Source: Diploschistes diacapsis (lineage: Eukaryota). From it: a stretch of 64,000 nt of DNA. The stretch is taken from contig JALAIB010000002.1 in assembly GCA_023645945.1 (NCBI GenBank), positions 1 through 64,000 on the forward strand, given 5' to 3'. This document shows, one piece after another, positions 10,762-33,976 of the stretch (within the stretch, counting starts at the first letter, position 1; every line of letters starts with the position of its first letter). The notes under the pieces are model-generated. The model was given only the letters and a program-made list of their open reading frames with translations, was not told the origin of the DNA and ran no database searches. The position numbers were made by a program, and so were the translations under genes.

Positions 10762-12300
10762 ATGGCTACAATCACGGACATGTATGCCACAGGCGACGGC
10801 ATTGAAAGAATCGACATTAAAGGCTTTCAGGTGAGATCAGGCACACTCAAACCATTGTTGCTTACTTTGGCAGGTTATCATCTGGCTCTCGGCAGGCGTC
10901 CCTGTACCATTCCTCCTATACCGGCTTCTACTGCGGATGAAGATATTCAGGAAGCTTTTTATTGACGACTATCTTGTTATAATTGCTTGGTTTATTCTGC
11001 TGGCGTTCGCTATAACTTGGCAGATCTACTCACCTGACATGTATGTGGTTGTCAATGCTTTGACTGTGGTCTTAGTAGAGTCTATCACGGATATACTCTA
11101 TCACACCGCCCGTTTCCAAACAGCATCTGTCATCTCGTGCCTTCTACAGGCATTTGGGCTGTGGTCGATCAAATCCTCCTTTCTGGCTTTCTTCTGGAGA
11201 CTTGGCACCAACGTCCAACACCAGCGAATGATCTGGTGGTCGGTGGCGGTATGGAATGCCGTTTGCTTTGCTATCTGGATTGGGACGGCAGGTTGGAAAT
11301 GCGTCGCCGTACCTGTCCAGGTGGCTGTTGGTAGGCTATTATCCAGAAGCGCTTCCAGATTCGTCGACTGAACTGCGCAGCGACATGCAACAACAGCAGC
11401 GTTGCGGCCTTTTCTCAAGCTTCGATTAAGGTTGAAACTGCTGTTGATATCCTCTCGGATGTTGCGAGTAAGTCAACCCACTATTACTTCGGATAGGGTC
11501 AACTAAGTCGCCTCAAGTTTTGGTAATCCCGGCAACACTGTTGTGGAAGTCTCAACTTCAAATCCGCAAGAAGCTTGCACTAGGCGGAATATTCTCACTG
11601 ACTCTATTCGTTATGGTCGCCAGTCTCGTGCGAGTCGTCATAACCACGAATGGAAGCCAGACTGATGATCTGACCTGGATGGGCGCATGGGCTGGTATAG
11701 AAATGGGTGTTGGTGAGTTCTCCCATCGAGTGAATATGGACGACCTGCCACAAGCTCTTCAGCCAGTACAACGATATCTTCCATCGACCGCCTATGATCA
11801 ACGACATCTTGAATTTTCGCTAAATGTAAACAGCCATTATCGTCTCTTGCCTCTGCTCCTTCCGCACCCTTTTCACGAGCCGAGTCCGCTCCGGACGAGT
11901 ATCCGCTTACGAGGCCTATCGAGCCTCCAAATCTTTCCATTGTCGCGGCCTCCCTCAATCTCGCCAGAGACAGACCCTATATCGTCTTGGTTCGTTCTTG
12001 ACGCAGAATGGCAAGTATGCCGATGCCAAAGCCACGGTCGAACGCGGAGATCGGCACGATGCAGACACACGCCAGCTGCATGAGCTTGACAAGTCGAACT
12101 TCGGAAAGGCGCTCGTTCAGAAACCATGCACGGTGCGAGACGAGTTGGCTCCGGTGTGTCATGGGCCAATGCCGATTCGAAGCATACCCGCTGGTGTGGA
12201 CGCCGATACAGATCTGACGGAGAAGAGCTGGCTGGATATTGAATCGCAAGAGGCGGAAGAGTCGCCAAAGTCACAAAACAAGACCCATGATCAAGGCTGA
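10762..12300 (+). CDS. PTH11-like (fungal rhodopsin-family) integral membrane protein without a CFEM domain
   Basis: Spliced product has RLLLRMKIFRKLFIDDYLVIIAW, WSIKSSFLAFFWRL, DILSDVA, IPATLLWKSQLQIRKKLALGGIFSLTLFVMVASLVR, WAGIEMGV|AIIVSCLCSFR. First intron 10831-10873. Confidence 0.85.
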
Positions 12301-13635
12301 GTCTCCCTTGCAACACCATAGCTCGAAGATCCATAATTGATAATAGAATGAGAACATGAGCGACAAGAATTATCTTAGTGCTCAAAGTCATTCATCCAGT
12401 GAACGATGAAGGCCATTCGTCATTCCTATTCTGGTTTGAATGGTCATCATTGCAAACTTCAAAAGGTAACAAGGACCCGACTTCAGAGTACCTCATAGCC
12501 TTGTCACTTTATCTACAAACCATGAGGATTGAGCAAGGCCTACAGCAAGGCGTTTCGCTAGCACAGGTATAGCAAAGTTGAAGAAAGCCACGGACAGGAT
12601 GAGGAGAGGAATCTTACATTGGAGCTCGGGACTGCTCCTGTCTGACCGAGCGGGAAAATGCGGATCGTCTGTATAAAGTGGCTGACGGGTACGCTATAAA
12701 GGATCTGATTTTCGCCCAAGAGGCAGCGCTAGCATGTGGTAGAGCTCCATGCTCGCCTGTGCGAAGGAAGTTTGCTTTGTATCCCGCTTTGGCCCTGTTA
12801 GCGGTGGAGGAAGAAGCATTATCAGAGGGCCAATCTGCAAAACTCCAGAGCAAGGACAAGATAACAAATCGTATGGAATATACGAAGCGCTAGATACAAG
12901 CACAATCGCAGCCGCCAATCATATATCACATTGCCGGCCTTTCGGAAATGATATAAATTCCAAGCCTATTCCTTCTCCCTCTCAAACCGAGTCCCTTAGC
13001 ATTTGAATTAATGATAGCCAAATGCTTGTTTGAAGGTTGAAACGTATGATGCAAAATCATGGTGCAGGGCTGGCATGGGAGCCCTGGCCTGGCATTAGAC
13101 AGAACCTGTTTGGAAGTCAAAAGCTTCCCATATTTTGATTGCTGGCCTTGCCATGTAACTTGATGTAAGCCATGGGGCTGTACTGAGTCGTGGCTAGAGT
13201 TACAGCCTTGTTCACAACAAGACCTCTCCGTAGGTCCATGTAAGGGGGGGAGTAGCGATTGGCGAATGAGTTGTACTTGAAACAACCCTGTTTTTAGACC
13301 AGGGGAAGAAGTCACGTGTAGCACGTGGGGAGCATGCAGAACCAATGTGGTTTCGCTATATATATCAGTTTAGTTCAATACTGGCAGAATCCAGTATTGT
13401 TGGTCTTTTGGCTATGTGGCCTAGCGGTACTAAACTGGCGCTTTGTAATATCACACCAAAACAAAGTCTACTCTACAACCTATATCGCAGATGCAAAAAT
13501 AGACTGTGCCTGTTCCTAGCGTGGTTGCACTCTGCTACTCTATTTAGGAAAGCTTTGATCCCACATGTATGGAGCCCATAGAGGCTCGCAGGCTATCTAT
13601 CGCCAGTGGTCCGTCTTCTGTCAAAATTCTGAAGC

Positions 13636-15066
13636 ATGCCCGCTCCTCTCCTGGATCGAATCTCAACTGGTAGCGCCGGAAGCCGCCTGAAAGGCGAGCT
13701 TCCGGACTTGCACCAGCACCACCACTCTTACCACGCCCATGGCACTGGCCACGAGCCTTACGATACCTCAATCATCGACTATGCGGACGAAGTGACGCAA
13801 CTGAACTCAAAACTGCAGATTGTTTGGAGCGAAGCAATGGACGACGATTACTACACGAGCAGTACAAACTACGAACATGTCCAAGTGCTCATGCTTTCGT
13901 GGGAGAAGGAGGCCGACGACCTCAGTGTGCAGGAAGAGATCGATAACCTGACCGAAGTTTTTCAAGACACATACAACTACCACGTCACTCACAAGATGAT
14001 CAAGAAAAGGGAAAAAAAGAAAGCTCAAACCCAGATCAATGCCATCGTCGCGAACTGGGTTGATGAACACGATGGTCTTAAAACGTTGCTGGTGGTCTAC
14101 TTCGCTGGGCATGGAAAACCCGGGCATCAAGCTGGTGAGCTCGTCATCAATGGCTACCAAAACCAGCCCTCGGACGTTCGGAGGTATCTCAACGAAGTTG
14201 TATGGAATATTACAGAGTACGTGCTGCGAGACATTCAATCCGATGTTCTCCAGATCTTCGACTGTTGCTACGCGGGAACGTTAGGTACAAGAGGGGGCTC
14301 ACAACAGTCTTTTGAGTATCTTGCAGCTACCGGAGCTGACGATACGACTGCAAGCCCGGGCAACAATTCGTTCACTTCAGCTCTGGTTTGGGCCTTGAAG
14401 GAACTCGCAAAAGACAGCACAGCCCGTTTCACTACAGTTCATCTGCTCGAGAAGATCCGGCAAAAGCCAGGTTTCCCAGAAGAACAGGAGCCAGTCTTGT
14501 CGAAGCGACGAGAGAACTCCGCAAACGAACGCATCATAATCCATCCCCTGAAACCTGGAAGCCCTGTGAGCGGTGCACCTAGGCCTAATGGAATAAGCCA
14601 TCACAACATACCCCACCAGGACGTCGTGACTCTCAAGTTCGTCTTCGAGTCTCGTCCGAGCGAGCGAGACATTCGCAACCTTGGCTCTGATCTCAATCAC
14701 GTCGTGCGACAGCATCAATTACACGTCAATCGCATCATGTGGGGTGGCATTCAGCCCCGAGCCGACATGGTATACCGCGCAATATCCAACATGAAGGCTC
14801 TGCGTTCGCGCCGCCAGTCCGAGATGCATGGACTGGGCACTAACGGTAACAGATTCCAGTCCAAGGCGGTGGAAGTCGCGACAAAATTCGTTCAAGATCT
14901 CCAAGAAGAGGTCCAAGAACACGTACAAGAGCAAGTTCAGGAGCAAGTGCATGAACAGGTTCATGAGGAGTTCCAGCGCGAACGGGAGGAATATGCGCAT
15001 ACAGCAGCTAGGAGGCTGGAGAAGAGCTCGACCAAGAGGTCGGTATCGGCGATGCTGGAGGAGTGA
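13636..15066 (+). CDS. Caspase-fold (clan CD, C14-like) cysteine protease-like protein with a C-terminal extension
   Basis: Intronless 476 aa. VQVLMLSWE, LLVVYFAGHG (His codon 14110-14112), LQIFDCCYAG (Cys codons 14263-14268), EYLAAT, SFTSALVWAL. Confidence 0.8.
   Translation: MPAPLLDRISTGSAGSRLKGELPDLHQHHHSYHAHGTGHEPYDTSIIDYADEVTQLNSKLQIVWSEAMDDDYYTSSTNYEHVQVLMLSWEKEADDLSVQEEIDNLTEVFQDTYNYHVTHKMIKKREKKKAQTQINAIVANWVDEHDGLKTLLVVYFAGHGKPGHQAGELVINGYQNQPSDVRRYLNEVVWNITEYVLRDIQSDVLQIFDCCYAGTLGTRGGSQQSFEYLAATGADDTTASPGNNSFTSALVWALKELAKDSTARFTTVHLLEKIRQKPGFPEEQEPVLSKRRENSANERIIIHPLKPGSPVSGAPRPNGISHHNIPHQDVVTLKFVFESRPSERDIRNLGSDLNHVVRQHQLHVNRIMWGGIQPRADMVYRAISNMKALRSRRQSEMHGLGTNGNRFQSKAVEVATKFVQDLQEEVQEHVQEQVQEQVHEQVHEEFQREREEYAHTAARRLEKSSTKRSVSAMLEE
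14905..14970 (+). repeat. Imperfect 12-nt coding tandem repeat (EEVQ EHVQ EQVQ EQVH EQVH EEFQ)
   Basis: gaagaggtccaa gaacacgtacaa gagcaagttcag gagcaagtgcat gaacaggttcat gaggag. Confidence 0.8.
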
Positions 15067-15853
15067 TATTTACTGTCTCGCATGCTTTTCGCCTGCCTAG
15101 TTTTCTGTCCGTCTTGCATTGCTAGAATGCGTTTCGTTTCCGTAAGCACTTTTGTTTGACAGGGGTTTTGTTCCCCTTTCTATTAGTATTTCTGCGGCGT
15201 TCTGAGCGATACCCTGGTAATTTTCCAATTTCCAAGCATGCAATCCGCTACATCGCTTACATTGTAAATGATAAAAAAAAACACATTGTTGGTAATGAGC
15301 ATCTAGCGGCTAATACGTTAAAAGTTTTGTGTAATGTGTTTCTCCAGCGCTGTACGCCTCTCTAGAAGTCCTCCCCCTGCATCTGCGTTTGGCTTCCATA
15401 GGGTTATGCTTAGCCCCCGAGTTTGAGGCTCAGATCCTTCGCAAGGGGTCCCTGCTCGTGGTTGGGGGGCCAATATTGCGCCAGAGCGAATGACGGCCCT
15501 CCCAAATGGTGTGAGAGCCTCGAAACATTGTGGACTCCCTTTCGAGGCGGGTGCGCACGGAGGTAAGGCTTCACACATAGGCAAAATCAGGCAGTTTGCC
15601 TACTCACCCTTGCGGCAGTACACAACAGGTAAACCTTGCCAGCAATGAGCGCGCGCTGTCACTGCCTGGTTTTGTATACATAAATAGATTGCCACCCCCT
15701 CAGGTATTCGCACTTTCTTCTTGCACACAAATCCTTAAACGAAAGCGTGAAGCCGAAAAGGTTTCAGGTTTCCCTAATCGGCCCCACTAAGCTCGATTGG
15801 GTAATCTGACAGAAAGGAATCCTCCGTTCCTTCCCAGCAGACAGATTCTCATC

Positions 15854-16310
15854 ATGTCTGGCGAGCAAAAGCTGTTTGAGGAACAGGTAGAGGCAACTGT
15901 ACGCACAGGCAACGATACTTATATCAGTTGATGATCACTGACAGGAATGCTAGCCGGAGACTGAGGCTCTTTGGGAAGCTAGCTCTCACCCAACAACAAG
16001 GGCAAGCATCGACAAGAGAAAAGTCAAAGCCAGGGTAAGGCTAGCCTACTATCTTCCACCCCTCTGGGGTTTTTTTACCTTGGGAGGTCACTGACCTTCG
16101 TTCCTCCAGCCCCCACACCTGTTTACAACCGGCGCCAAGGTCCTCATGCGCAGGAGCTCGACCGATATCTTCGAGGATTATATGATCGTGACAGAACCTG
16201 TATTCGACGAAGATCGGAATGGGTGGGTCTACCGGCTCAAGGAAGATAGTTCGACGGGCCTTTCGTGGCCGAAGAAGGTCAAAGAGACGAACCTAAAGCG
16301 GAGAAGGTGA
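15854..16310 (+). CDS. Small three-exon 104-aa protein with an SH3/Tudor-like beta-barrel C-terminus (not in the ORF track)
   Basis: Exons 15854-15886, 15954-16034 and 16110-16310, with GT-AG introns and CTGAC branch sites. Product: MSGEQKLFEEQ|PETEALWEAS...KVKAR|PPHLFTTGAKVLMRRSSTDIFEDYMIVTEPVFDEDRNGWVYRLKEDSSTGLSWPKKVKETNLKRRR*. Confidence 0.7.
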
Positions 16311-17146
16311 AGCGAAAGCTATAGAATGATTCGCATTACCTGAATGGAATTGCACTTGCATCTTCGCCTTTCGTTCGTCACTGCCTCGTCTTTTATTAAT
16401 GCATTGTCTTCGGGCGGCGACTAGGTTCCTTGCTTTGTACGTGGCAGGACGGGGTCTTTGCCACACTTTTCAACAGTTGATGCATTGCCAGCTGAAGCTG
16501 GGGTTACCCTAATAATCCTATGCCGTAAAAACTCCCCTGGGCTTTTGGAAGAAAACTAGCCACACCAACATGAATCCCGAATGACGTTTCCAAACACAGC
16601 CACATAGTTAAGCCACACCACAAAATTTTCCCACACAATCATTGTTCCCAACCCACTCCCCAAACTTTTTAACTAAGCCTCGAGTGAAGAATATTCGGGA
16701 GGTGGCAGCCTGGGGCTCGAACCCACGACCTTCGACAAGCTCATCTCCATTCGCTTTCACTGGGTGTTGTATGCCGGTTCTGCAAGGGCAGTTGCCCAAA
16801 GGCGTAACTAGTTACCATGCCTGCTTATGTAATCTCCCATCTAGAAGGAAACGGGCGACTAAAAATTAACTGCCTTTGGATTAAGGCCATCTTTTTGGGG
16901 ACAGGCGAATAATGTATGTGTGCGCAATGATCAATTTGCCCAGGGTATCCTCACTCGGATATGCCGAGGGGTTGTATTTGCGTCGCAAGCACGCACAAAA
17001 GTCCATGCGCTCGCAAAAAAGAGCCTTTCCTACCGTGCAGTCGAGCGTAAATCTGCCTTACTCCAACGTCGGGGTCAGGCAAGGCCCGTTCGAGAATGCG
17101 CGCCCGGGGCTTGTTGCTGATCATCCTCTGCTCTGAATGTGTCCTA

Positions 17147-17215
17147 CAGTCAGGTGCCAAAAGTAGTTAGGTCCTGCCGCTTATGGTGTACCTAACTACT
17201 TTTGGCCTAGTACTG
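17147..17215. mobile_element. Miniature Tc1/mariner-type inverted-repeat element (MITE or internally deleted relic)
   Basis: TA|CAGT...ACTG|TA ends. Perfect 17-bp inverted repeat: gccaaaagtagttaggt (17156-17172) and acctaactacttttggc (17190-17206). Confidence 0.75.
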
Positions 17216-17387
17216 TAGGTCCCCCGAGAGTCCAGTCAGCCGAATAAAGGTTGTCAAGTTCGCACATTTACGCTTTTCTTGTTGGCTTTGCATTGCTTTT
17301 TGACTTTTTTTCGGCGTCTGTTGGCCTTTTTTCCTCCGTATCTGATTGCTTGCTGCTTTGCATGGGTCCTTGACGGTTAACGCAGTA

Positions 17388-18995
17388 ATGTCACATTCCA
17401 GTCCTAGCTCCTCCTCCGCAGCCTTGCCTGCCATATCCCATGATTTCGCGAAACAGATCGAAGAGGGTCGCTCGCCAGTTGGTATCTCCCACGACGAGGA
17501 GCGGGATACATTCGACGAGAAATTCGAATTGAAAAGCCCAACCGCGCTCAAAAGTAGAAGCAGCACCTTTGCAGCCGCCACTACCCGGAGTTCCATATCC
17601 GCCGTGCAAAAGGCGCTGTCATGGGGTACTTCCGTCGGCGCCGCCGTTAAGCCAAACACCTCTTCCTCCAAGGCCGAGGTGAAGGTCAATAAGCTCGAGG
17701 ATTATCCCCTGGGCTACCCACGCGTGAGCTACCTTCTCAACAGCGACGACTCCTTCATGATGTACCGGCGCTTCGGGCAGCTTCACTCCCGCCTGCTCCT
17801 GCACAAACAGGACCAACTGCGAGAAATGGAAGAAGAACTCTTGGCCCTCGACAAGCGGGACGACAAGCTCGAGGACACGCAGATCTACCTCAAATGCCGA
17901 TCCGAGGACGACGAGCGGGATCCGCCCAAGCGAGGGCGTAGCAGAAAGGAGCTGTTGGAGCAGATCGAGAAGACGTTGATGGAGTACGGCAGCGTGCTGA
18001 CGCAGGCGAATCAGCTGCAGGGGCTGAATCGGCCGACGGATCGGGACCACGCGAGCGTGTCTCATTATTTCCACAATGAGCAGCCGCTCATGGAGCAGGA
18101 TCGGGATTGGCTGTACCGGAAGGAGGACCTGGTGACGATAAGGGAGGGGAGAGAGCATGCGTGGCTGGATGCGGCGGTGGAGGGGTTCTTGCGGTGGTAT
18201 CCTTGTCGGCCCATCAAGGTATGAGAGACCCATTCCAAGTGCTATTATCGGGCATTGGCCGCCGAAAACCGGCGAATATGGCATGGTATAGGCTTCCCAG
18301 GGACACGAGACTGAGACAACCAACAGTACCTGTTCTGCTCCGAAGAAACACGCGCCAAAACATCCAATTCGACTATCCACTACTTTTCGCGCTCGCGCAT
18401 CAGCTTCGTCGTTACGCTGCTTATCACAATCCTTATCCTCGTTCTACTCGTGGTACCCATCTGGGTACTGTTCTACCTCACCGTAACTCTACGGACGGGC
18501 GTCGCGGATACGGTCTGCATCGGCGTTCTGCTTGTATGCACGCTCGTGTTCTCGTGTGTATTAAGTCTGTTCACGAGGGCGAAGCGGCACGAGATTCTGG
18601 CGGCAGCTGCTGGGTGAGTTCATTCAACGCCTTTATTCCCTTTTCACTACCACCGTATTCTATCTGGCGTTTCTGGGATATGGTCTACGAATGGGGCGGA
18701 GACGGCTTCATCAGCGGGAGCGCTCCAGTCGCTCCAGTGCGTCCTTCTTTCGTATTGCCATAGCAAACTTGTAATGATACAGATCGATATCCTGAAGGCA
18801 AAAAGCCCACTTTTATCCTGTCTTCCAACTCATATATACTCGCATGTGGCTTCCGCCTGCGGCTCAAGCGCATATCAATCCTCAAGATTCCGAACAAGTG
18901 AAGACGCAACAGACTAATTCCGCGAGAGCAGATACTGCGCCGTTCTCGTCGTCTTTGTGGGTAACGTAGGCAACAATAGCAACCTTCAGCAGTAG
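17388..18995 (+). CDS. DUF6594-type protein with an N-terminal helical domain and C-terminal transmembrane helices
   Basis: Exons 17388-18218, 18327-18613 and 18932-18995. Motifs GYPRVSYLLNSDDSFMMYRRFGQLHSRLLLHKQDQLREMEEEL, KEDLVTI, hydrophobic helices, and FTRAKRHEILAAAAG|YCAVLVVFVGN. Confidence 0.85.
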
Positions 18996-20097
18996 CCTTT
19001 CGAGGCTCCAATGGTCCAAGCGTGCTCGCTTGCCCTAACATTCCGGTATCGGTTATCAAGGCGTGCAATAGCTCGCAGGGGCGCATCCAACACCGATGCT
19101 CACGTCGGAACCTAGCTGGTCAGATCGATAGCCAAGGTACTCACCAACAGTCCGGGCCTCGAACCGCAAATTAAAACTCCCTCTCTCCCCCCTGCGGATC
19201 CAAAATACTAGCAAAAACGGGCGCCGTCCCTTAATTGCAAGGCGCCTTAGGACCATGTAGCTGGGTCAGACTGTATTCGGGAGCCTTGACACAGATGGAA
19301 TGGGAACTTTGCCACCGAGGCAGATTCTTCTGCCAGGAGGCAAAGGGGCAAGGGGAGGCTTGATATTGGAGAGTCTCTTGCTTTACCTACCTGGTACGTA
19401 GGGGTGGTCGGAAGGCCTGGGGTACAAGGCTTTAGAGTCAATATATAGGATTTTTTTTTGGTGGGATTGGGTGGGGGGGCATATTCCTCGAAGGGATAAG
19501 GATCGATGGGGGTTTGCATACTACCGGCCCTCGGATCTTCGTACATCGCTCAGGCACAGCAGATGCTGTCCGCTGTGGGGCATCATGATATATGATACTA
19601 GGTATGAACGACGATGGAGACGACGATGACGGCCGCTTATGTATATATAACTCTTCGAGATCACCTCTCACCTTACACAAAAATCGTGCATAACTCGCAT
19701 AAATTTCATAATCTGTATGGGGGGGTGTTACAAGTCGTTTTGATTGGCTATATAATATATGTTTGTGTGTTGCGTCGACTACCGTGGGTGCTAACCTTTG
19801 TTCTGAGGGGGTAACTTCGTAGATGCAAAAGCACAGCCTCCCCAAGAGCCGCAGGCATCGCATCAGTCCAGTCATCTAACCAAACCAGGAGGAGTGTGCT
19901 GGATCCTTCAGAGGAGCAAAACTGGCATAATGTAAGATAAGATCAAAAAACGTCTTAGCCCAAACATCTTCCCACAAGATGATTACACCAATGGCAGACC
20001 TGCCCGTTGCATTTCCGTCATCCTCCACCGGTGCGCTTCTGTTCTATGTAACCTCTCTTCTCTTTCCTCTCATTTGCATTTCAGCATCACGAGCATC

Positions 20098-21214
20098 ATG
20101 ACTACCCTCTCTTTCCCATTTCCAACCGCGTCCCGCACTGTTCTCGCTCCGCTGACCACGGTCTTCACGCCTGCAGCGACGTGCAGCTCATACGTTGCGA
20201 ATGGAATTCTTGCTCCTACCGTTGACTACTGGCAAGCCCAGGCTTGCTCGGACGGCGCCCCAGTAGATGCTCTCCCTTGTTGGCCGCCTGCTCTTGTCCA
20301 AACCTCGATCCCACTTCATGGACGAGGTTTCTACTCCCCTGGCTTGTCATGTCCTGCAGGCTATACATCCGCTTGCACGGCCGCTCAGTCAACGAATGGC
20401 TCCCCGAGCCCGCTGGCCCTGGGAACGTCGTTCGTCTTCCAATACCCTCTTACCGCAGGAGAGACAGCGATCGGATGCTGCCCTGGGTTAGTCAAAACCC
20501 GCGAGTGCACGAACATGCCTAACATCTTGCAGAGGTTTGACTTGCGGATATGGGACCGTCCAAAGTTCCACATGGCAGACATGTATGTCCATCGTAACGA
20601 GCGGGCCAGTAGATAACGTGGCCTTCTGCGACACATCTACCATCGGAACTACACAACTCATCAGCATTCCGGGTCCCTATGTCACGGACAACTCGAGTAC
20701 AGTCACCATAACCAAGGCAACCCTTTATGGGCCTCTGGTCCAGATCAACTTCAAAGCCACCGACATCTCATCATTAACTCCGCCTATGATCACAACAAGC
20801 AAATCCGCCCAGCCTGCCTCTGCGACAGGAGGCGGCTATGGGTCCAACAGCACCGCAGTCACGGACCAATCCGGCGATTCAGGCCTTTCAACCGGCGCAA
20901 AGATTGGCATCGGTGTAGGGGTACCTCTAGGAGTCTTGCTGCTCGCTGCAATCGCCGCCTTCTTCTTCCTCCGGAGACGGAAGAGCAAGCAAGGACCGGT
21001 TCCGATTCAACGGCCGCTAGGGGACCCGAGCAAAGCAAATTCGCCCGGTGGTCAAGGCCTGCACGGCCAGGGCGCCCACGCGCCACATGGGAAGTGGCAA
21101 AACATGTCCGAAGCCCCGGCTGGAAGGCCGGAAAACATCGAGCTTGACGGAAGAAATATGCCGTCAGAGGCGCCACCTGCGGAGCTACCCGCGGACGGGC
21201 CTGGATATAGGTGA
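20098..21214 (+). CDS. Single-pass membrane protein with a Cys/Thr-rich ectodomain; intron 20487-20532
   Basis: LTTVFTPAATC, FYSPGLSCPAGYTSAC, ETAIGCCP; TM segment GLSTGAKIGIGVGVPLGVLLLAAIAAFFFLRRRK; cytoplasmic IELDG/PAELP motifs. Confidence 0.8.
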
Positions 21215-24200
21215 TGAGGTATCAAATGCCATTATAGATTACAATCTTGCATTTCAAATCGTGACGATTCTAGAACGCGGCGAGGACGAAGCAACGAACC
21301 GGTGGTCAGCAACAGGGCCCGTCCAGGTCCGCTTTTCTCAAGGGCTCTTCTACCCTCAGCCCCGACTGCTACGGGTCAAGCTCTCACGGTATATACATGT
21401 ATATTTTCTCATTCACACTCACCCCCGTGCAAGGAAATTCGGCAACCGTGACAGAAACCTGGGACATCTCCAATGCCGTTGAATTTGCCTGGGGGTGCTT
21501 CGACCCATCATGTGTCAACGAACCCCTCTTTGAAATTGTTTCCCTACGAGTCTTGCTAGGTTACTGGCGTTGGGGGGGGGGGGCCGTTTCCCTCTAGCGC
21601 CGAGGCCGCTCTCCACCACTTACAGAGGTGTATGTCCGCTGAAATCGATTTTGTTCTCATTCCCTGGAGCCTTTTTGCCACATGGCTCCTGATCCCCTTT
21701 TGCTGCTCTTCACTTCCCTATCCGGCAACGCAATGTTGATGTTTCGTGGTGACCTGAGTCCCTTACAGGTGTATAATCCTGCTCAAGGTTCCTACCTCAT
21801 AGACTTCAACATACTCCAGCTCGGAACTCCTGCCTCGTGGCATCTCGCTTCCTTTTGCTCTCTAGCTTAAAGCTTCCTACTCCCTTGTATTTGACCGCCT
21901 GATCCTTTTGCTCATATCGATAGATCCTTGTATCTTCTTCCCACTCATCTCTCTTTGATATACATATACGAGTACCGGGGTCTCGTGGCACCGCGCCAGC
22001 TAACAAATAAGTCAAGGAATCTTCTCCCCAATAACGGAAGCTCTCATTGGTTCCTAACCCTTTTCCAGGGAGTACCAGTCCAGGGCGGCACTTGTGCCTA
22101 AGTGAAGAATTAATTGAGCGTCAGAAAGTGCTAGGGTAGTTTGCATTTGCCATTATCTCCTGGATCTGTCAAAGAGATATAGGTTACTATTGTTGGCTTC
22201 CTACTGTTGTAAGCTTCTTCCGCTCACTGCGTATCATCTTGATCGCTCCTGTCGTTTTCAAAGGTTTGTGAGCCGTGTAAGCCTGCCGATACTTACGATG
22301 TTTGCTGTGCGGGCTTTTTTGCTTGTTCGACAGCTCGGATGAGCTCTCGAGAAAGTCACCGTCCGAAGACAGTACCCTGATTTCTTCCTTCAAGTCCCTT
22401 TAATAAGATTTGATTAGGGGCCCGCTGGTCCCGGTGTACACATTGCAGTTGATAGTCTGGCCAAGCAGGTGGCTAGAAAGCCCGGCGGCGTCATTCTATC
22501 CCTGGTCAGGCTAATGTTTCTACTTGATAGATCCACGAAACCTATTCTCTAGGCTATGGTCCAATGTATGTCGGAGTCCTTGCGCCTTCCTCCCCGAAAG
22601 TCCCCTCTCCAAGGTAGCGTAACCGGCACAAGCCTTGGAGCCATTTTAGATGGCTCATGTAGCCACCAAGGGAGCTTATAGAATAGCAACGTGAGCGCGG
22701 TGGGTACCTCGTAGCTCCGTGTCCCTAGTTCGCCTCAGTCCCACCTCTAAGCAAATCAAAGGTGCACCTGGTGGATGCTAAAACTATTCGTTATCGTTTT
22801 TAGGTCGAGGCAGGTTCTTTGTTCTTGCTTTCGAGCGTCTCATGCGTCTCATCGATATCCGCGAGGTCTCACGTTCGTGGTCTCTAGAATGGGCTGTTGG
22901 CCCCCATTCTCGGCCTCTTTCCTCTTCGGTTGAGGCACGGAGGTTTCCAAAGCGGGCTCGAAGATCATCGACGACCTCGTCTACTTGTCGGCGATCCGGT
23001 TTGCTGCTTCGTCCTCAGGACCGGCGAGCTACTTCGGACTTTGAGATTGGCCTTGACTAGCATATTGTGTCTCCCACGGTAGCTTGACGTAATAATGCGT
23101 GGATATATTTTTCTGTGTCTATTGGAAGCTCGACGTCAGAGTTCGGTCAATTTGACGGTCATTAAGACCTTCCTGAATACGAGAAGCATGTCGACTAAAA
23201 CCAGACTTTACTATACGCACCCTACTTGGTTTCATTCACTTGGTTGAGCGTGTTTAGAGAATCTTTCGTCGGTCTTTTGCGACGATATAACTAGTAGCTT
23301 TGGCATTACTGTCCCAGGAAGGTTTATAAGAGCCAACTGTTAACACCATTGAGAAGCTTCCGTCCTAGCATGGGCTTCTTATTCGTATAAGGCTCAATAG
23401 TCTCTTGAACTGTCCCTGGGGACGTACTCTGGGCTGTAATCGTGCGACCAAACGTCCCATCCTAACTCCTGAAGTTTTTTCCGCTCTGCTCTAAGCAGGG
23501 CTACTCTTCGCCTTCAACTATTGGATCATGTCGTCCATGGACTTATCTACCCCCTTTTATTTCCAGATGCGGTAATGCCCACACACGTCCCTTGTACCTT
23601 TGACTCGGGTTCGTAGGATTTCTCGTTGGTGACTGGTTTGATTCCCTATTAAAGTTGCTTGCAGCTCTTGCTTTCGCAATTCTCTTCCTTCTTTTCCAGC
23701 CATGCTTAGAATAAATAGCCTTCCAAATCTCGTTGCTAGCAAGAAGAACAATTTTAAACGTATGTACCGATACACTGACTCCAAGGCCAAAAACACCTGC
23801 CACCGCGGGGATTCACGGTCCTATATTCCGATGACATCAATGTCCATTTCGGTAGCAACTGTAGTTCGTCGTCCCCATCTCGTGTCAAGAGGCTTTAAAC
23901 GCTCTAGCCTGTAGCTTCCCAAGCAACTCTCTAACCGGCCGAACAACCGCCTCCATCCAAACTGCGTGACGAAAAACCGACTACAGGACCCAGACACCAA
24001 GCAAGGCTAAATCAATCCTCGGCCAAAGCTCGACAGTCCCAGCCTCCCTTTCTTCTCTCCTGCGACATAGGTTTTATGGGACATGACAAAGCATCTTACC
24101 TGATGCCAACATATCCCTAGTCCCAAGGTGATGAGTGAGACCCATACCGCTTAAAGCGTTCTAGCTCTGTTGATCGCTGTGACAGAAGCTTCTAAATTTG

Positions 24201-27200
24201 GCCTTAATAGGTCGGATCGACAAGCACCCTCCCTGTAATGTAGCAACTGTAAAGCTCCAAGGACGAAGTCGCCTCGCTGTTCTTTCGTGAGCCGTTTTGA
24301 TATAGAAGTTTTTTTTAGGCCAGACGGCAGATCTAGAAGGCTGCTCTCGGCTTAGGCTTGATTAAACCTGCTAAGCTAATTTGTCGATGTTTTATACTTT
24401 GAGATAAGAGTAGATCCAGAAATCCCCAACCAAGTTGTCTTTAAACGGGCATTTAATAATAGTCAATAGCTTTAAATTAGAGATAGAGGGAACCAGGGAC
24501 GGAATCGACGTGGTTAGCTAGAGTTTAATTGTGGCCTGACTAAGAAGAGCGGAGAAGGATAAAATAAAGTATAAAGTAAACTCTGGTAGTTGTAGAAAGG
24601 TAAGCTCCACAGATTTTAAATTTTGTAGGGAACTTTGGGTCCAAATTCATGGACTGAGATAGAGCGTCCTTTTTTTTATTAGTGTTTAAACTTGTTCCGG
24701 GCCAATTCGTTGCTATCATTTGTAATAGTATAATCAATTGATTAATGGTGAGAAAGATGCATTGTTAAATCTGGTGGGGGCAGCGAGCCCTTATGCCAAG
24801 TGGATGCCTGGCGGCAGCGAGGTCGGCTGCGACAGCCAAGGGCAGGAGCTAGCTAATGTCTCTAGCAAGTTAGTAGCCACTAAATCCCTGGGTGTTACAG
24901 CTTCGAGCTTGTTATGCCATGTTAACAGCCACTGAACATCTTGCGAAATGGTTCTGTATTATCGATATCCATCTACTCATCCTAAAGCCACTCGTTATAG
25001 CCGAGCGGTCGCTTCCTGGAATGGAGAAAAAAGGATGCTCGTAGTCTATTCAACCGAACTGTCAAGCAGTGAACAAATCATCTCCTCCAAAGGCTGTTTT
25101 TCTGCACGAAGGAAGAGATGTGCTCTTTAATCAACATGATTGCCTGGGAACCCACATGGCTCCATCGAAAGTTTTCATTCGGTGAGCAGCCAAACTGGAA
25201 TACTGGCCTGACCTGCATGTACTGAAACTCGTTTATTATGAAGAGATCAAACAACAAAATGATACGGAAGAAAACGTCCCTCAATCGCATGCATGTTTGC
25301 ATCCTCTCTAGCCATAATTTTTCTATGACAGGTTAAAATTTCCCCCTCATGTGGTTGAATCGACTTATTCGAGCCCCTAAATCGGTACGACTAAACCGGT
25401 ATGATCGTCCCTGCCAGCTTCTCGGATGGTAATATCGAAAGATGTATAAGCGAGTACTTGGGTTATGCTCGAAGGAAGCTCTGACTGGATATGCTCCAAC
25501 AAAGAGAGACAATGGCTGTAATGCTATTAAGAAGCCCAAGACGCGAACTTTGCCGTTAAAATGACCATGTTAGCTCTGCATGCTCAACTCGGCGTTTAGA
25601 TGGGTATTTTAGAGCCTAAAGTTAGACAGTAAAGCCTGACTCGCCAGATACTCCCCGGATCAACAGGGACACCTGAAGTGACTATGTGGGAAGTTATAGC
25701 CCAAGCATCATTCACGCGAGATCTTTTGAAACCCTTCCCAGAATTGTTGTTCTTGTAGCTCTTTATTTTTGAATGGTTTCATCATATATCTTTCGGTTCG
25801 CCAGCTCCTGAAGCGAAGTCTTCCGCTTTGCACGGTAAACCACGGACGCAACTGGTTGGAAGTCTCTCGCTCTCCACGGTAAGGTACTGGCATTTCTTCT
25901 CGACCTGGTTGTACAGGAGTCGTGCCTTCCCCACGATATCGCTCCGAGTAACTGGAATGCGCCTACTTCTTTTAGTATCGGTGTCCCCTGTGTTTTTTCC
26001 GGTGCATTGCCTTTCTTCTTATACCCCTACACACAGCTTTTATCGGGATTTGGCTTTCAACGTTGATCTAAGAAGAACTATCTGGTTCTCAGAGTGTTGT
26101 TTTACAGCATAAAGCGAATGAGCCGGACTTATATTCCAAGTTTTGATAGAGTTGGGGGAAATTTGGGTCCCGTTATATTCGTACAACTCATCTTCCGCAG
26201 TTCTTCGCTTCTAATCTCAAGTCCTGTCTCATGGGGTCTCGGTTTAACCATCGCCGTTACCATCCTCGTGGAGCTCATGCTTCAGAGCCGTGTCAGGCAT
26301 CGGTGCTTGATTCGGAGATCCACATCGAAGGCACGGGTTTATTTCAAGCCGCAAGCCAGAGCAGATTTAACTGAGTGGAGGACAAATAACCTCAGCCAGA
26401 GTTCTCAGTCTTCGCATAATGGCTTAAGATTCCGATTAAGTTAGATTCTTTAGAAAACATCCTGGGACGAAGTCGGCATTATAGTCGTGTGATGGCTCCA
26501 ATCTCAACCCTTTCCATAAAGAATTTGCTCGATGACTTCAAGTTATCTGATCACACCCCAAAAGGGAGGGGTTACTCCAATTGGCTTTTCCTGGAAATGC
26601 CCTTGGCTATTTGTTAGGGGTTTACTGACACAAGCTACGAAGGTACCCTTCTCCGCTTTCCCTCGGGCGCTTTCTTTCATCGACCCCTCAGGTTGTATTT
26701 AGTCCTGATAATAGGAGTAAACAAAGTATGGTAAACCCATTGCGAATACAGTAGAAAGCCACAGTTCCCGGCGCCTGGGTAAGTCGTGAAGAGTTGAGGT
26801 GTTGTAGCCAGACGCAGCATTCTATCGAAAAACCCTCATCGTTAGCTTCTGCAATCATTCTTTCTTTAGCTTCCTTATACAGCGGAGACTCCGCCGGAAA
26901 ATAGGTCCTACTTAACCATGGTCTAGGTTCATAGTACCTGGATTGAAAAAGACAAGATTCTCTGCTAGAAATTGAGGATGAGCATCCTACTTTTTCGTAA
27001 ATCAAAAGTGTACTCCAGCCTATCGAAGCGCGCTTCAGATGACTTGTCGTTTGAGGAGGAGGTGATAAGTTATAGAAGCTATACATTGCAGAGGTAAATG
27101 ATATCCCTACCTTGCGAGCCGCCCTCTCGTATCCGTCGATACTCTTATTAAAATCCGCCTGCATCGCTTTATTGGTCCTTTGACTTTGTGTTGGAGTGGT

Positions 27201-27863
27201 CAATGTCGAAATCGCAGCACCCATTACAACAAAATCTGAAGAAACCCCAAACGCCTTTCAATTGGACTAGAAAAGGATCAGCAGCCACAATGCATCCTAT
27301 CAACAAATACCTGAGAGTTGATGCATCGTATAATGCGGGCATTCCATCGATGGGCGCGATCGAGCGCCCCGCAAAACAACATTGGCACTGCTCGGTATGC
27401 CCTGTAAAGATAACGTAACCCGCATGGGCGCTGCAAGTTCACCGAGGTCGAACCTACTCGAACACTGACTATCAGTACTTAGCTCTCGTATTTAGGGTCA
27501 TTAAAGATCGTCATCTTTTTTTCGACGCTCTGTTGTGCTGTTGCATGCCTAAAGTACGACAGTCTTGCAGCCTAGCAGCGTTAAAAAGATGTCCAACACC
27601 CGCACATCTGTTGGCGAGTTATCGAAAAGAATTGTCTTTTCCTTCTGCTCGGTACAGATCCATTCAATGAAAAGAGCAAGCGGTGAAAGCTTGCTTCCAT
27701 CTATTCCAAAGGACTCGGCCGCCGATCGAGCATCTTGTCATGCCTTTTTCGTTCCAGTTAACCAGCCACTGTCCTCGACCGTTTTATCTGATGCCACGTC
27801 TAATACTATCATCTGTTGATTAAATATCATCGCTCATGTGGTATCTGCACCTTCTATCAGGAC

Positions 27864-28135
27864 TTACTTACCGACCCCTAAATAATATTTCCTCTCTGTC
27901 CCGTCTCGACATCTTTCCTAATATCCACAATATGTCGTCTGAACGAGATCTTATCTCCAGGCGCCTCGTACTGAGTGCAGTATCAATTACTAACTAACCA
28001 TATATTATGATCTGGTCTGAGGGCGACATACAGCAGGTAGTGCATGGGGCACTATCGAATGGCTTCTTGAATCCCACATAATTCGGCTCCAACCTAAATT
28101 AGATTGGCCTTCCCCCTTTCGCGTAGATGCCAGTG
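27864..28135 (-). pseudogene. PhyH-like 2OG-Fe(II) dioxygenase fragment, copy A
   Basis: With frameshifts: HWHLRE..GQSNLGWSRIM...HYLLYVALRPDHNIWLVSN*YCTQYEAPGDKISFRRHIVDIRKDVETGQRGNII*GSVS. Nucleotide similarity to copies B and C is visible directly. Confidence 0.7.
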
Positions 28136-28305
28136 TGTCTTGCGGGAGGCCTTGGAATACAGACCTCCTCCTAACTCTGGAATAGAAAATGGATTGTAAC
28201 CCGGCATCTTTACAGGATTGATTGAAAAGACAAAAGCTAATACCAAAGGATTCTGTTCTTAAATAATAAACTTGGTGAATTTTCAAGTCCCTAAAAGGAA
28301 TAAAA

Positions 28306-28406
28306 GTGAATGTTTTTATAAGTAATAAAAGTTCACTTTTCGTAAGTGACTTTTCGTTATTTACAAAGTGACAAGGTGAATGTTTCCGTAAGTGACAAAA
28401 CGTTCA
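28306..28406. repeat. Short direct-repeat cluster, possibly a transposon subterminal remnant
   Basis: gtgaatgtttttataagtaataaaagttca (28306-28335) versus gtgaatgtttccgtaagtgacaaaacgttca (28376-28406); an extra cgtaagtgac at 28341-28350. Confidence 0.6.
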
Positions 28407-31400
28407 ATGGCTTGAAGTGCTCATCAACTCTCTGGGTCCCAATGGAGCTCCTGGGGCCTATGCCTTGCAAAGCAACACGACTGACTGACGGGTTTCAACT
28501 AGGCGTGCAATGCAGAGAGTGGAACCCTATATCGCTGCCGTCCAGGAAGCCTGACCGCCCATGTTTGCAGCTTTGATAGGGACCTCGCGTTTTGAACTTC
28601 TCCAATTTCCAGCAGCCTTTTCTAATTGAGCTGTAAGAGGTAAGATACCTAGCTTTCCGAGATTATAGTTACAACGGAGCCCGTCACACATGCTTATTGC
28701 TTATATATAGGAGAAATAGCTTTTCCGGCTGCTGAAAGCCTTAGTTCTTTTGTTCAGTTCGTTCCCATAATCGTCGGAAGAGAGTCAACAAGGGAGCTCG
28801 CCCCTAAAGGAATATTCTCTGCTCTTGTGATTGGGGATATTGGCATATTGACCTCGGCTTGTAAGATGAAACAGGTTTGCGACAAAAGCTAGAGGTGATC
28901 TAGCTCACTTGACGTTAAGTTTCAAGGTCTCCGCCCCTGTTATTTGATTCCTGTGTCGTTAATGGAGGCGACGTGTCGATATCTAGGACTCAGTTAAACA
29001 AAGGGCAAAGAGTAGTTGGCTCAGGCCTCAGCATTTCTCTCCGTGTTTCTTTGACGATTCATAAAAAGCGGTTTGCTCGCACCAACTTTCCTCCCACCTT
29101 ATTCTTCTCCTATAGGGGTTCACAATTGTATTTCGATGCCTGACGTTTTATAATCATCATCCTGTTTGCCTTAAATACCAGCAGCATGTTCACGACGCTA
29201 TCAGCAGAAAAATGAAGCCTTGGAGATTGCCTCTCTTTTCGAGAAAACAGCGGCCTGATTATCATGGATAGCAGCAACAGAAGGCTCCTGAGTTAAGGAG
29301 TCGCCAAGCAAAGGACCGACAGAAGAAAAGCGAGGCACATCCGAACGCGAAGGGCCTGAGCTAGGTTGAAACTCGTCTCCAGAGGAGGTAAAAAGACCTA
29401 TCAGTACGAGAAGGCCCTCCTGGCTCGGTGGTAGGAGGTGGCACAGGAATCTCAGGGTCAGAACTCGGAAGAACAGAGGAAGAGATTGCATAATACTGTT
29501 TCTTAGGTCAACCAAGAGGGCGAGTAATCCTGTTTTCTATTATTAAGTCCTAGAGTCTTATGAGCCCGTAAGAATCTCGATGTGCTTAAGTTGCTAGATG
29601 GGTAGTTGGAGTCCTAACCCCATTACTTTCATTGCATATTGATATCAACGAGTTGGAGCCCTTTCGGCTAGGTGAATGCTGAAACAATTGCTCCTTCTAA
29701 GGGTTCGGAGTTCGTTGAGAGTAAGTCAGGCAACATTGCACTTTATGGCTATTGTTGTGCATGCATTATCATGCCCTTATGCAAAAGGACAGCTTGGGAG
29801 TGTCTTTTGTCCGTTCGCAGTAATTTCCTCGGCAGGGCCAGTGGGATTCCTGCGAGGCTTCCGTTTTCTTTAGAAGTATTGAGGATGAGCAAGTTCCTGC
29901 GCGTTATAAACAGCAGGGGCCTGTAATATGCATCCCACGTCTTGAAACCAGGTTTATTTGACTCAAGTTTAGTTATGCGAACTCTCTCGCCTATCGTATG
30001 ATGCATAGAAACTGAACGGTCATCTCATATGCTTCAAGTAGTCTTTCAGTTATCCCAGGTTTCAGGTTTAGAGTCCTTGGGTACACTACGCTAAGAGTTT
30101 GTTCTTGAGATCATGAGTAAAAATGAGTTTCAACCTCTGTAGGACTTTTGATTCCTCGCGGCAGTGAGCAATGCCTTTTCTCTTACTAACAGTAGGTACT
30201 CCTTCCTCATGCCATGTTTTTCATTTATAATATCAAATATAAGGGAAGACTCCGGAGCGGTAACAGAGTCATTCCTCCAGATTAAATCCTCTTTCAGTGA
30301 GCCACGGAAACCGCCTATTCCATATCTGTCCTCTGTAATGGCTGCAGTGCAAACAGTCGTCCACATGCTAATAGTGACAGGTAGCGCAAGTCCACATCCT
30401 GTACATTACCAAGGACTTCGCCCTCTTTTAGATAGATCCGTTATCAGATCGCCCACATAAAACTTCGTGAAACTGTATCTCCACAGTATCCGAAGCAAAA
30501 TTCTAGGCCATAGTGATATCATGATGCACAGGAAGGCGGTTCTAGAGGTAAGCCCGAGCTCCGCATACAGTCCCGACGAGGGGTTTTCCTCTTGCTCAAC
30601 TTCACTCAGGAGATTTGCCCCGTATGGGTAATCTTCTTTTCGTTGAGTACGGCTTCCTGGAGTTTGGTAGTATGTTCTGAGTGGCGTCGCGGCGGACGCT
30701 AGGAGGTCTAGGCCATGGGCAGCAATTTATTGATTTGGTAGACCGTGGCAGTCAGCCTGAAGTATAAAGTTGAATAGTGTATGCTTCGAGGTGGAGCCCG
30801 TAGGTTTTCCCAACGAGTAAACACGTCTTCCCTAGCACTTTTCATTTTTCCCCCATTGATTATGATCACACCATCGGTGTCGAGACCAATTAGCTGTCGA
30901 GCCTCCTTGTCTTGTTATAATCGCGATTAGCCTGCAAGCATAGTCAACCGTTTCTCCCAACGAAGGATGACCTCCAGCTCCCTTTTTGGTCCCTGGTTTA
31001 GATCTTTCTGTTTTAAGGATCTCATTACGCCGTTAGCCACCGTCTTCGGGAAAGCCCCACTTGGCAGACCTGTATTGATTGGTTAGTGGCTGATCAGCTT
31101 TCGAAGCCTTCCGAAGGATAGCGGTGTTCCGGTGATGGACCAGTTATGCGTAATACCCCGGAACGAACCTGCGCACTAGATGATATGCATCTTTTCTCTA
31201 TAAAAACCTCATCGAACATTGCTCTCCTCGTAAGAAGAAAGGGGAAAGGCACGCCAGAGCTCGAGCTCGTAGTCAAGTTGTATCGGGGTGCGAGATATTG
31301 CCCTTAATCTGTCTAGGCTGTGCGAGGCCTCTTAGTTATGGCCACTTTTTGTTCCTAGAACCGGATGTGTCTTTCTTCTATGGTATGATCACTTATGCTT

Positions 31401-33619
31401 TGCAATAGGTTCGAGTAGCTTGCGGTATGTTTCCCTATGGTCAAAAATTAAGTCTTCAATATGTAGGCCCAGGCCTTTCCAGAATCACTGAAAATTAGGC
31501 TTATCGGAAGCGAATGCCTAAGGGAACCACCATGCTTGCGATGACGGAAAACGGTTTTTTGTAAGCCCTGTAGGTATCGAGTAGGGTGTTGTTGCAGTTC
31601 GTGACCTTAGATCATCTCATTAAGGCACGACTTTATGGTACTTTATCGCATTTGTTCCGTGTTATTCTGCTACACTTAACCATGTGGTGACAACGAACTC
31701 TGATTCGAATGATCCATCAACCAAGTCCCGCTCATGGTCCAGTTCATCGGAGGAAAGTGAGGTGGAAGGTTCCTACGACTCACAAACTCAATAGATGTAA
31801 CTCTACACGACATCACTTAGAGGCTAAGGCCAGAAACTCCTGCGGACACAAGTTTTTTATTCGTGCAAAAGTAAAGTATAAGTTCCTTGAGTAGTCAAAT
31901 GAACTGGAAAAATTATCCCTGAATGTGTTGCTCATGGTTATAAGGTAGGGTATCCCGGATTTGGTGTTGTAACAAAGCTTCCCTAGTCTTAGCAGTTCGT
32001 ACCCAAGGGTTACTCTCGAGCCCGGAGTCCCTCTATAATCTCGAATTGTGTATCTCTCTGCCTAGTGTATCTCAACCAGGCTCAGTCCAGGCCTGGACTT
32101 TCCGACGCCATGTCAGTCCTGGCCGGTCTTTCTCAGCTAGCATACCAGAGAAAGACTCCGAGCACCTGTTTCTTTGTCTTTGATTCTCAACAGCTCTATC
32201 CTCTCATGTTCACTGTTCATAATCAATATTTTATGAGAAATTATTCTCTGGCCATTGCCAAACCCAAATACTGCTATTGTTTGGCCCCCCAAATCGTCCT
32301 AGGTGGGATCTCAGCACGTGCTTTGATATTTAGACAACGCCTAACTGGAAGTAATAGAGATAGGCCACTGGGCCTGTAGGTGTGACGTTCATCACTAAAA
32401 CGGTAGTGGCCTTGCATGCATATGCAGCTAGATTAGTAGGTGTCAAAGGTACGGAGTTCCTGCCTTTTCTCCATTTTGCTCTCTGAAAGGAATCATATGG
32501 TCTTCATGCCATATTTGACCATATGGTGGCCACAAAACTGTTATCTCAAGTCACCCGGACCCTGTTGTTTGCTAGGTGCATTGCCAGGTTCATAATATAG
32601 CAAGAGCCCTCCAAATGCGGTGATAACTCCTCTTCATGCTGTTATCACTTATTTTCAATACTTACGCTGCAACAGAGGAAGGTTCACAAGCACCACCCTA
32701 GGTCATACCAGTTGTAGTTGTGTTCGACCAAACTTCAACGTGTTCAAGCATGACTTGACAACGCTATCCAAGTCCAACAGTCCTGAGCCGAGTCTTTTAG
32801 CTAGCGCCATGGGTTACATCTATCTTATGGTTCGGGACAAAAAAAGCCAAAGGTCCCCTAATTTTTGTACAGAGATTTCAAGGATAAGGGTAACCATCGT
32901 GACTCCGGTTAAACCGCCTTCACGGAATACAACAGCCGTACCTCAGCGCTTTCACTCTCCGGCCCCTCTTCGACTTCTTCTCAAGCTTGGAGGTATCCTC
33001 GAAAGCTTTGTTCTGTTTGATAGGCAAATAGGATGAGCAAGCTGGTGCCTTTTAGTGCGGTCTTCGACCTTCGGATCACTGCAGATTCATTCGCATTTTT
33101 GAGAACCAGTGAGGCTAGATTGGTATCGTGCTGAAGTAGAAGATGTCCTATCTGCTCTACGAGGATACGTTGGCAGCTAGAATCATCTAGAAGTTCGAAG
33201 ATGCCGATGCTTGACTCTCCAAGTACTTACCGTGATCCTGAATGCTTTCAATGTAACAAATAGGTCTCAGTCGGTTACTCGAATCCTACAGATTGCGCCC
33301 GTAGGGTATAGTTGTCCAATATTCGCTCAATCTTAAAACCGACATTTGTAACATCCTCGCCACTAGACCTGCCTGTAAGATGATGTTTCGGGACAGGAGA
33401 CGGAGAAAGAAAGACAAAAATCACGGCCTTGTGCATATTTGACAAGCAAAGCTAGTCCACACTGATCTTATAGATATCTGACGATGTCTTCTCGTATGAC
33501 ATAATGTTCTCCTCACCTTTACCAACTCAGGCGTTACTATAGTCAGGTATCCGACTCCTAGAACATGGATTGAGAAGGAGAAGCTTATATTAACATACTC
33601 CAGAAGCACGTCCATTTAG

Positions 33620-33976
33620 GGCCGTGGAACAAACTTTATACCACTGTTCTTTTCGTCCTGGGCAGACCACGTTTTGATATCGATGGTATGCATAGAATTA
33701 TCTTTTAAAATGAGTTCAGTCTTCTGTCTCTTGTAGCAGCTTTTATTAGTGATGAATTTGTTAATGTATGCTTAATAGTAGCTCTGTGCAATTATCATTA
33801 GCTTTATTATTCATATTTATCGATTTCTGTATGATATTTCCACCTGCCCTGTTTCGTTATTATTCTTAATCTTTATGTCAATGTGTCTGAACGAGTTACT
33901 GTCCCCAGGCGCCCTGGAATTTAGTGTAGTACCGATAGCTAACCAACCAAGTATTATGATCTGGTCTGAGGGTGAC
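33620..33976 (-). pseudogene. PhyH-like dioxygenase fragment, copy B (RIP-like G-to-A mutated)
   Basis: VTLRPDHNTWLVSYRYYTKF/APGDSNSFRHIDIKI...NIIQKSINMNNKANDNCTELLLSIH*QIHH**KLLQE/LILKDNSMHTIDIKTWSAQDEKNSGIKFVPRP. Confidence 0.75.

Follow-up and report, generated by a model that had tools for sequence, protein, structure and literature searches.

A recurrent gene trio of caspase-fold protease, small SH3-like protein and DUF6594 membrane protein in Diploschistes diacapsis and other fungi: a candidate protease-gated membrane effector

Investigating a window of 64,000 nucleotides from Diploschistes diacapsis (assembly GCA_023645945.1, contig JALAIB010000002.1, positions 1 to 64,000 of the forward strand), we found three consecutive genes within positions 13636-18995, all open and all on the plus strand, which encode a caspase-fold protease, a small SH3-like protein and a membrane protein of the Pfam family DUF6594, and which very probably constitute a dedicated three-gene module. 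We moderately favour the view, built on analogy with the systems discussed below, that this module is a protease-gated membrane death effector combining a new effector family with a hypervariable regulator. The first-pass annotation of this DNA had described three co-oriented, intact genes and had proposed a dedicated cassette of protease, small protein and DUF6594; both statements are borne out, the latter by linkage that recurs in distant fungi and among paralogues, in a gene-neighbourhood comparison for which the lack of such recurrence had been set beforehand as the refuting outcome.

The evidence for a module comes mainly from metagenome loci. An alignment of the protease found 113 relatives in 603 stretches, of which the best 80 were kept and all scanned with locally built profiles; the clade of the window protease (31 loci) was delimited in a tree of 36 locus rows and named proteins, near-identical duplicates being added by hand. 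A DUF6594 gene lies 0.9-2.6 kb from the protease in 16 of these 31 loci and a small SH3-like gene stands near it in 19 of the 31, compared with 0/49 for either partner in the other loci, many of which are short or bacterial and only 6 of which have 3.5 kb on both sides. Among loci flanked by 3.5 kb or more on each side, the figures are 9/11 for the clade (6/8 when near-identical loci are merged) versus 0/6. The 16 linked loci represent 10 lineages. Their proteases share 33-43% identity with that of the window and fall among named proteins of Leotiomycetes, Eurotiomycetes and Lecanoromycetes; a candidate for the small SH3-like gene is present in all 10 (weak in L072), and in a short locus placed near a Sordariomycete protein the small gene is the only partner seen. 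Ordinary synteny fails as an explanation, because the genes occur in four arrangements and the flanking open reading frames (ORFs) are common neither to the lineages nor to the window, except for HET-domain paralogues and one other weak pair (four weak pairs in all, three of them among HET). HET, NOD-like receptor (NLR) and ankyrin genes lie near several loci, and partner proteases with tetratricopeptide repeat (TPR) or kinase-like domains occur. Two loci show irregularities that reflect either a broken allele or an assembly error, namely about 80 bases absent from the small gene of L059 (12094-12277) relative to L056, and frame breaks in the DUF6594 gene of L081 (12915-13223).

Named genomes give the same picture. 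For four of the five best among 16 longer DUF6594 homologues, the contig equals in size one that bears a protease homologue. Protease and DUF6594 genes are adjacent in Xylographa vitiligo (MMC15_003626 and MMC15_003627) and separated by one gene in Thelotrema lepadinum (MMC10_002621 and MMC10_002623), while in Lecanora helva the SH3-like gene ACLMJK_004366 adjoins the DUF6594 gene ACLMJK_004367 and the protease match has a distant tag.

The genome of D. diacapsis itself holds DUF6594 loci on 12 contigs, four of which adjoin caspase-fold genes of three types: the window, C4066, C1824 and C3391. The 12.5-kb contig C4066 (L026, G000:C4066, 420-10000) carries a TPR-CHAT gene, a metacaspase-like C14 gene (a 743-amino-acid ORF), a small-gene candidate, DUF6594 and a second TPR-CHAT gene, and these two flanking CHAT genes are the only ones found in the genome. 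On C1824 (L032/L033, G000:C1824), a caspase fused to a kinase-like DUF7580 region lies beside DUF6594, together with kinase and ankyrin genes; a similar fusion, apparently broken, lies beside DUF6594 on C3391 (L039, G000:C3391). A NACHT-WD40 NLR gene adjoins a DUF6594 fragment on C3013 (L043, G000:C3013, 3395-9809), which may indicate that DUF6594 pairs with NLRs as well; the remaining seven loci have ordinary neighbours. The genome has at least ten caspase-fold genes, and for three of seven non-window caspase-fold loci to lie near DUF6594 the chance is ~2e-6 under uniform placement, which exaggerates the significance should defence genes cluster. Caspase-fold genes that carry His/Cys motifs are also present at three further loci, L028 (C205), L138 (C957) and L140 (C3223); one of these genes has TPRs, and DUF6594 is absent from the stretches fetched there. 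When the small-domain profile was run on 2610 ORFs lying no more than 3 kb from a DUF6594 or protease gene, the top seven came from seven different DUF6594 loci, each 5' of the DUF6594 gene, and the best score from six DUF6594-free loci was 2.6 bits; the four from paralogues in the own genome reach 5-11 bits only and are candidate family members. We retain the module as a unit, since the three families remain neighbours when the gene order is rearranged and when the protease type is swapped.

Turning to the proteins, the PF00656 match of the protease scores 28.7 bits against a cut-off of 21.4, and no other Pfam family was matched. The intact His-Gly and Asp-Cys-Cys dyad in a caspase fold, pointed out in the first-pass annotation, recurs as His159-Gly160 and Asp209-Cys210-Cys211 in 55 of 56 aligned homologues. 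An AlphaFold2 model (predicted local distance difference test, pLDDT, 80.8) has MALT1, caspases and metacaspases as its best structural matches (for MALT1 Z 17.8, root-mean-square deviation 3.4, 208 residues aligned). By modelled fold and His/Cys dyad, the protein is a caspase-like peptidase of clan CD/C14, its proteolytic activity being a prediction. The best library profile match is NF047832, the EACC1-associated caspases (E 7.9e-13), with 48.4 bits against a cut-off of 140. According to the accessible text of PMC4357240, the S1 pocket of caspases is formed by Arg, Gln and Arg, that of metacaspases and MALT1 by an Asp in alpha-1 plus an Asp at Cys-2. Mapped by sequence alignment rather than on coordinates, Glu101 of the window protease aligns with the metacaspase alpha-1 Asp, Asp209 takes the Cys-2 position and Asp95 precedes alpha-1; the basic pocket of true caspases (C14A: Arg, Gln at Cys-2, Arg) is not present, and EACC1-associated caspases have Asn at the position of Glu101. 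The pocket residues Glu101 and Asp209 therefore suggest a preference for Arg/Lys rather than Asp at P1. P0034 and L063 (8293-11179) each have two tandem caspase-fold domains, of which one belongs to either fungal clade, and in L094, L114 and L122 a YqgE/AlgH-like domain is joined to a bacterial EACC1-type caspase. A likeness of the C-terminal domain to EACC1, seen by eye, found no support in profile comparisons, and PADLOC gave only weak caspase matches, in homologues. In a close relative, X2, the protease gene lacks one base at 14012, within a run rich in A; this deletion may mean a broken allele or be offset by an indel outside the rows shown.

The second gene had been announced as a three-exon gene for a beta-barrel protein of 104 amino acids. 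It does splice to this length, with GT-AG introns and branch-like motifs, which makes the three-exon model plausible; homology covers exon 3 only (66 amino acids, the conserved domain), and a 98%-identical NCBI record (P0090) is modelled as 71 amino acids and spliced differently. Weak matches to YdhK (E 0.025) and, in one or two of 123 members, to scattered Tudor/SH3 Pfam models suggest an SH3/Tudor-like barrel, as do leads in the Atlas. The family has no Pfam entry. Clustered at 50% identity, it comprises 229 clusters, a few of which are long repeat proteins and likely to be chance matches; among the best 150 of these clusters, members mostly are stand-alone proteins of less than 135 amino acids. 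Trp39, Tyr41 and Glu59 are nearly invariant. Across 11 linked loci, the median pairwise identity is 25% for the SH3-like protein, 35% for the protease and 47% for DUF6594, a contrast inflated by short alignments, and on these alignments the small protein is the most divergent component of the module. Unlinked copies cannot be counted, because the reverse search for paralogues with single proteins returned the queries alone. Elsewhere the small domain is found repeated in tandem or within larger DUF6590/DEK_C or TPR-kinase proteins (P0113, P0121, P0126, P0184, P0214), and a predicted ORF (P0171), which may be a gene-calling merge, joins it to the C-terminal half of a protease.

The third gene yields a PF20237 (DUF6594) match of 204.7 bits, above the cut-off, which starts at residue 110 and covers model positions 1-232 of 238; homologues run on through the same third exon. 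Hydrophobic helices are located at residues ~301-330, 336-359 and 366-384. A 62%-identical full-length homologue (P0077) was modelled with pLDDT 75 and a predicted template modelling score of 0.57, showing a disordered leader of ~105 residues with low pLDDT, then a long hairpin of helices, a small helical region and, C-terminally, three helices, in agreement with the earlier description of a disordered leader, a helical domain and C-terminal membrane helices. The acidic leader site SHDEERDTFDE, formerly put forward for cleavage, is present only in the closest homologues, and the protease pocket points to Arg/Lys instead. Of 15 proteins checked, 13 have a leader that is acidic in its first half and basic in its second. 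Lys288, which stands in the linker just ahead of the first membrane helix, is a candidate cut that, by analogy with EACC1, would free the membrane bundle; all 26 aligned rows having a residue there, which are related to one another, show Lys or Arg. An N-terminal leader motif, [LIVM]E[KER][GA], was set aside as a cleavage site because it is found in unlinked copies too and in many cases contains no basic residue. Foldseek with the DUF6594 model gave no match at E 0.001 in PDB or BFVD; the VIA structure search returned generic hairpins and three-helix bundles, some ESCRT-III-like (best Z 8.7), with gasdermins in 0 of 50 rows. Neither a new fold nor an absence of relatives follows from these model-based searches. 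The Atlas had no usable match for DUF6594, sequence searches of the PDB nothing significant, and the family matched in 0 of 14 control genomes.

Among systems described so far, the nearest is the bacterial EACC1-caspase module. In the accessible part of 10.1101/2025.11.14.688446, the EACC1-associated caspase cleaves EACC1, at a site modelled as Asp, and the resulting C-terminal fragment is lethal to cells and disrupts liposomes; PMC7159879, as far as its text is accessible, had first read EACC1 as a membrane sensor activating its caspase. The bacterial loci retrieved by our protease alignment are EACC1-caspase operons, 8 of 8 proteases tested scoring above the NF047832 cut-off, and both systems combine variable domains fused to the caspase with a neighbouring membrane protein as presumed substrate. 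The window protease, in contrast, stays below that cut-off, DUF6594 (~390 amino acids, three membrane helices) has no similarity to EACC1 (~120 amino acids, one helix), the fungal module has a third gene, and its alpha-1 pocket residue is Glu, not Asn. No adjacent EACC1 gene was found in a comparison covering the DUF6594 and protease profiles, and the small protein has no hydrophobic helix. The parallel formerly drawn with gasdermin-linked proteases thus has to be corrected, since the closest match on the protease side is the EACC1-caspase system and not the gasdermin-linked CHAT or S8 proteases.

Gasdermins are beta-rich proteins, unlike the all-helical DUF6594 effector modelled here with its membrane helices; the nearly all-helical P0077 model argues against a gasdermin fold, and the structure searches brought no clear family match. 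The het-Q1/het-Q2-like gasdermin clusters are nevertheless similar in layout, with an effector within 10 kb of a protease gene (TPR-CHAT included), as in our module, and with interchangeable proteases and several clusters per genome (PMC8851545, accessible text); they differ in that the main protease of our module is C14-like rather than S8 or CHAT and that an SH3-like gene is added. Metacaspases and MALT1 (C14B) share the fold, the His/Cys dyad and the acidic residues at alpha-1 and Cys-2 (cf. the accessible text of PMC4357240), yet identity is 11-17%, the window protease has an extra C-terminal alpha/beta domain, and it is distinct from the genome's own metacaspase (C3079). The HET-S/NWD2 and HeLo-like clusters, as described in the accessible parts of PMC10197012 and PMC12881547, likewise are small fungal clusters controlling a helical, membrane-targeting effector, but they use amyloid templating from an NLR where our module uses a protease, and the module core has no NLR and carries its hydrophobic helices C-terminally. 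By analogy, the module would work like the EACC1 and gasdermin cassettes while belonging to neither.

On the reading we prefer, the module would serve regulated cell death or non-self defence in filamentous ascomycetes. The DUF6594 protein would lie latent in the membrane until it is cleaved by the activated protease. The cut would probably follow Arg/Lys and fall either within the leader's basic half or at the invariant Lys/Arg that precedes the first membrane helix, and the freed part would oligomerise and permeabilise the membrane. The fast-evolving SH3-like protein would be a trigger-sensitive regulator (inhibitor, decoy or adaptor), substituting for the sensor domain which this protease clade lacks. 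Several observations weigh against this scheme. Linkage is a sign of a shared pathway and not proof of death or of cleavage. Two full-flank clade proteases (L053, L063) are clear negatives without any partner, the closest protease and DUF6594 matches of X. soralifera lie on separate contigs, and for 8 of the 12 own-genome DUF6594 copies the stretches fetched include no neighbouring caspase-fold gene. The tree of the protease clade roughly tracks the fungal classes, as that of a conserved signalling gene would. A profile of EACC1-like proteins (8 sequences) compared with the DUF6594 and protease profiles gave a probability of 0.1%. The Arg/Lys preference is itself uncertain, as EACC1 caspases share the Cys-2 Asp and their modelled cleavage site is an Asp, although at the position of Glu101 they have Asn. 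In X2, the one well-covered relative, no divergent allele was found: divergence is 2.0% in the DUF6594 piece and 2.3% in the protease piece, compared with 0.7-2.6% in flanking pieces. As the X2 pieces diverge by ~2%, like the flanking genes, the locus looks neither accessory nor polymorphic; the accessory block proposed at the outset finds no support here and, as far as one relative can tell, neither does allorecognition polymorphism. Complex prediction, run without alignments on protease residues 44-400 and DUF6594 residues 95-277 with the small domain as partner, scored 0.00 and is evidence neither way.

Three other explanations have to be weighed. The module may be real and serve non-lethal proteolytic signalling, with the membrane protein as sensor or anchor and with a signal, either its cytosolic domain or the SH3-like protein, being released by cleavage in stress, septal plugging or development. 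The class-level vertical pattern of the protease clade, the housekeeping flanks at most loci, the strongly conserved cytosolic helical domain of DUF6594 and the initial reading of EACC1 as a membrane sensor (PMC7159879, accessible text) speak for it, but defence genes typically show what is seen here, namely numerous paralogues, broken copies, exchanges of the protease and NLR/HET/CHAT neighbours, and the nearest bacterial system turned out to be a pore-former (10.1101/2025.11.14.688446, accessible part), so that we consider such signalling unlikely. Rather improbable in our view is a toxin-antidote pair of DUF6594 and SH3-like protein, in which the protease destroys the antidote without cutting DUF6594. 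An SH3-like candidate does stand 5' of DUF6594 in 5 of the 12 own-genome loci, in one of which (C4143) no protease was found on an 11.8-kb contig, and the gene is kept where the protease is of another type (C4066, C1824). Against this, 7 of the 12 loci show no SH3-like gene, the predicted ORF P0171 fuses the small domain to the protease, and identities of the SH3-like protein correlate with those of DUF6594 at a Spearman coefficient of 0.15, compared with 0.56 for protease and DUF6594 (28 non-independent pairs).

That the three genes share no function at all, being neighbours by inherited synteny or through collecting in defence-gene islands, seems very unlikely. The named examples come mostly from lichen fungi, each family has some unlinked members, and the chance estimate of ~2e-6 takes uniform placement where defence genes may cluster; nonetheless, the genes stay within 2.6 kb of each other despite inversions, reordering and turnover of the flanks, and this adjacency recurs with different protease types.

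In the surroundings of the module, neither of the two flanking genes listed in Table 1 was found again beside it in the loci compared. The neighbouring region, earlier termed a decayed mobile region, is indeed a gene-poor 20-kb stretch (21500-41500) of lower GC content (43-49%) with diverged three-copy repeats, but 0 of 90 ORFs (at least 62 amino acids) in it match Pfam when transposon domains are sought. Short high-copy elements were noticed in the intergenic DNA of the module (13346-13456, 16675-16720, 17143-17219), with bin depths up to ~50x background and many loose ends. The last is a 30-nucleotide inverted repeat; the second resembles a tRNA arm by eye, and ARAGORN reports no tRNA there.

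Table 1. Features of the module and its flanking genes (window positions, unless residues are given)
Feature	Position	Strand	Basis or remark
Caspase-fold protease (clan CD, C14-like), 476 amino acids, single exon	13636..15066	+	PF00656, E 1.4e-6
Protease layout	residues ~60-310, peptidase domain; ~325-400, small conserved alpha/beta domain; then long C-terminal helix		
Catalytic His159 codon (FAGHG)	14110..14112	+	Present in 55/56 homologues
Asp209-Cys210-Cys211	14260..14268	+	Cys211 putative nucleophile, Asp209 putative S1 residue (by analogy with PMC4357240)
Small SH3/Tudor-like protein, up to 104 amino acids	15854..16310 (exons 15854-15886, 15954-16034, 16110-16310)	+	Gene model
DUF6594 protein, 393 amino acids	17388..18995 (exons 17388-18218, 18327-18613, 18932-18995)	+	Pfam, homologue model
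DUF6594 protein layout	~105-residue leader, helical hairpin domain, three C-terminal membrane helices		
Lys288, candidate basic cleavage site in linker before first membrane helix	18357..18359	+	Hypothesis
Flanking gene, Fung_rhodopsin-domain membrane protein	10835-12300		Pfam match
Flanking gene, Ser/Thr-rich single-pass membrane protein	20053-21214		No Pfam match

In the full-text literature, we found no paper naming DUF6594 or PF20237, nor one on DUF7580; supplementary files (for instance Dataset S1 of PMC8851545) and subscription papers lie outside this search and could list the trio. Searches by theme brought up papers on gasdermins and reviews, or nothing. A search for IPR046529, presumably the accession of DUF6594, also found no paper. 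The trio is not described in the accessible portions of PMC8851545, PMC12881547, PMC10197012, PMC13304501, PMC7159879, PMC7849911 and PMC12611243.

To our knowledge, few fungal death executioners have been recognised, and we know of almost no assigned substrates for fungal caspase-like genes besides metacaspases. The module points to a candidate substrate of a caspase-like clade that is widespread in fungi, offers a testable role for a Pfam family with 12 loci in one genome, and defines a small-protein family that previously was unannotated. Tentatively, and with doubts outweighing our confidence, DUF6594 might be a large, so far unrecognised fungal executioner family, a third class beside gasdermins and HeLo/MLKL-like proteins, activated by a fungal lineage of caspase-like proteases related to the bacterial EACC1-associated caspases and gated by a hypervariable SH3-like guard or decoy. 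If true, the protease-gated pore logic of bacterial EACC1 and of gasdermins would extend to a new eukaryotic effector.

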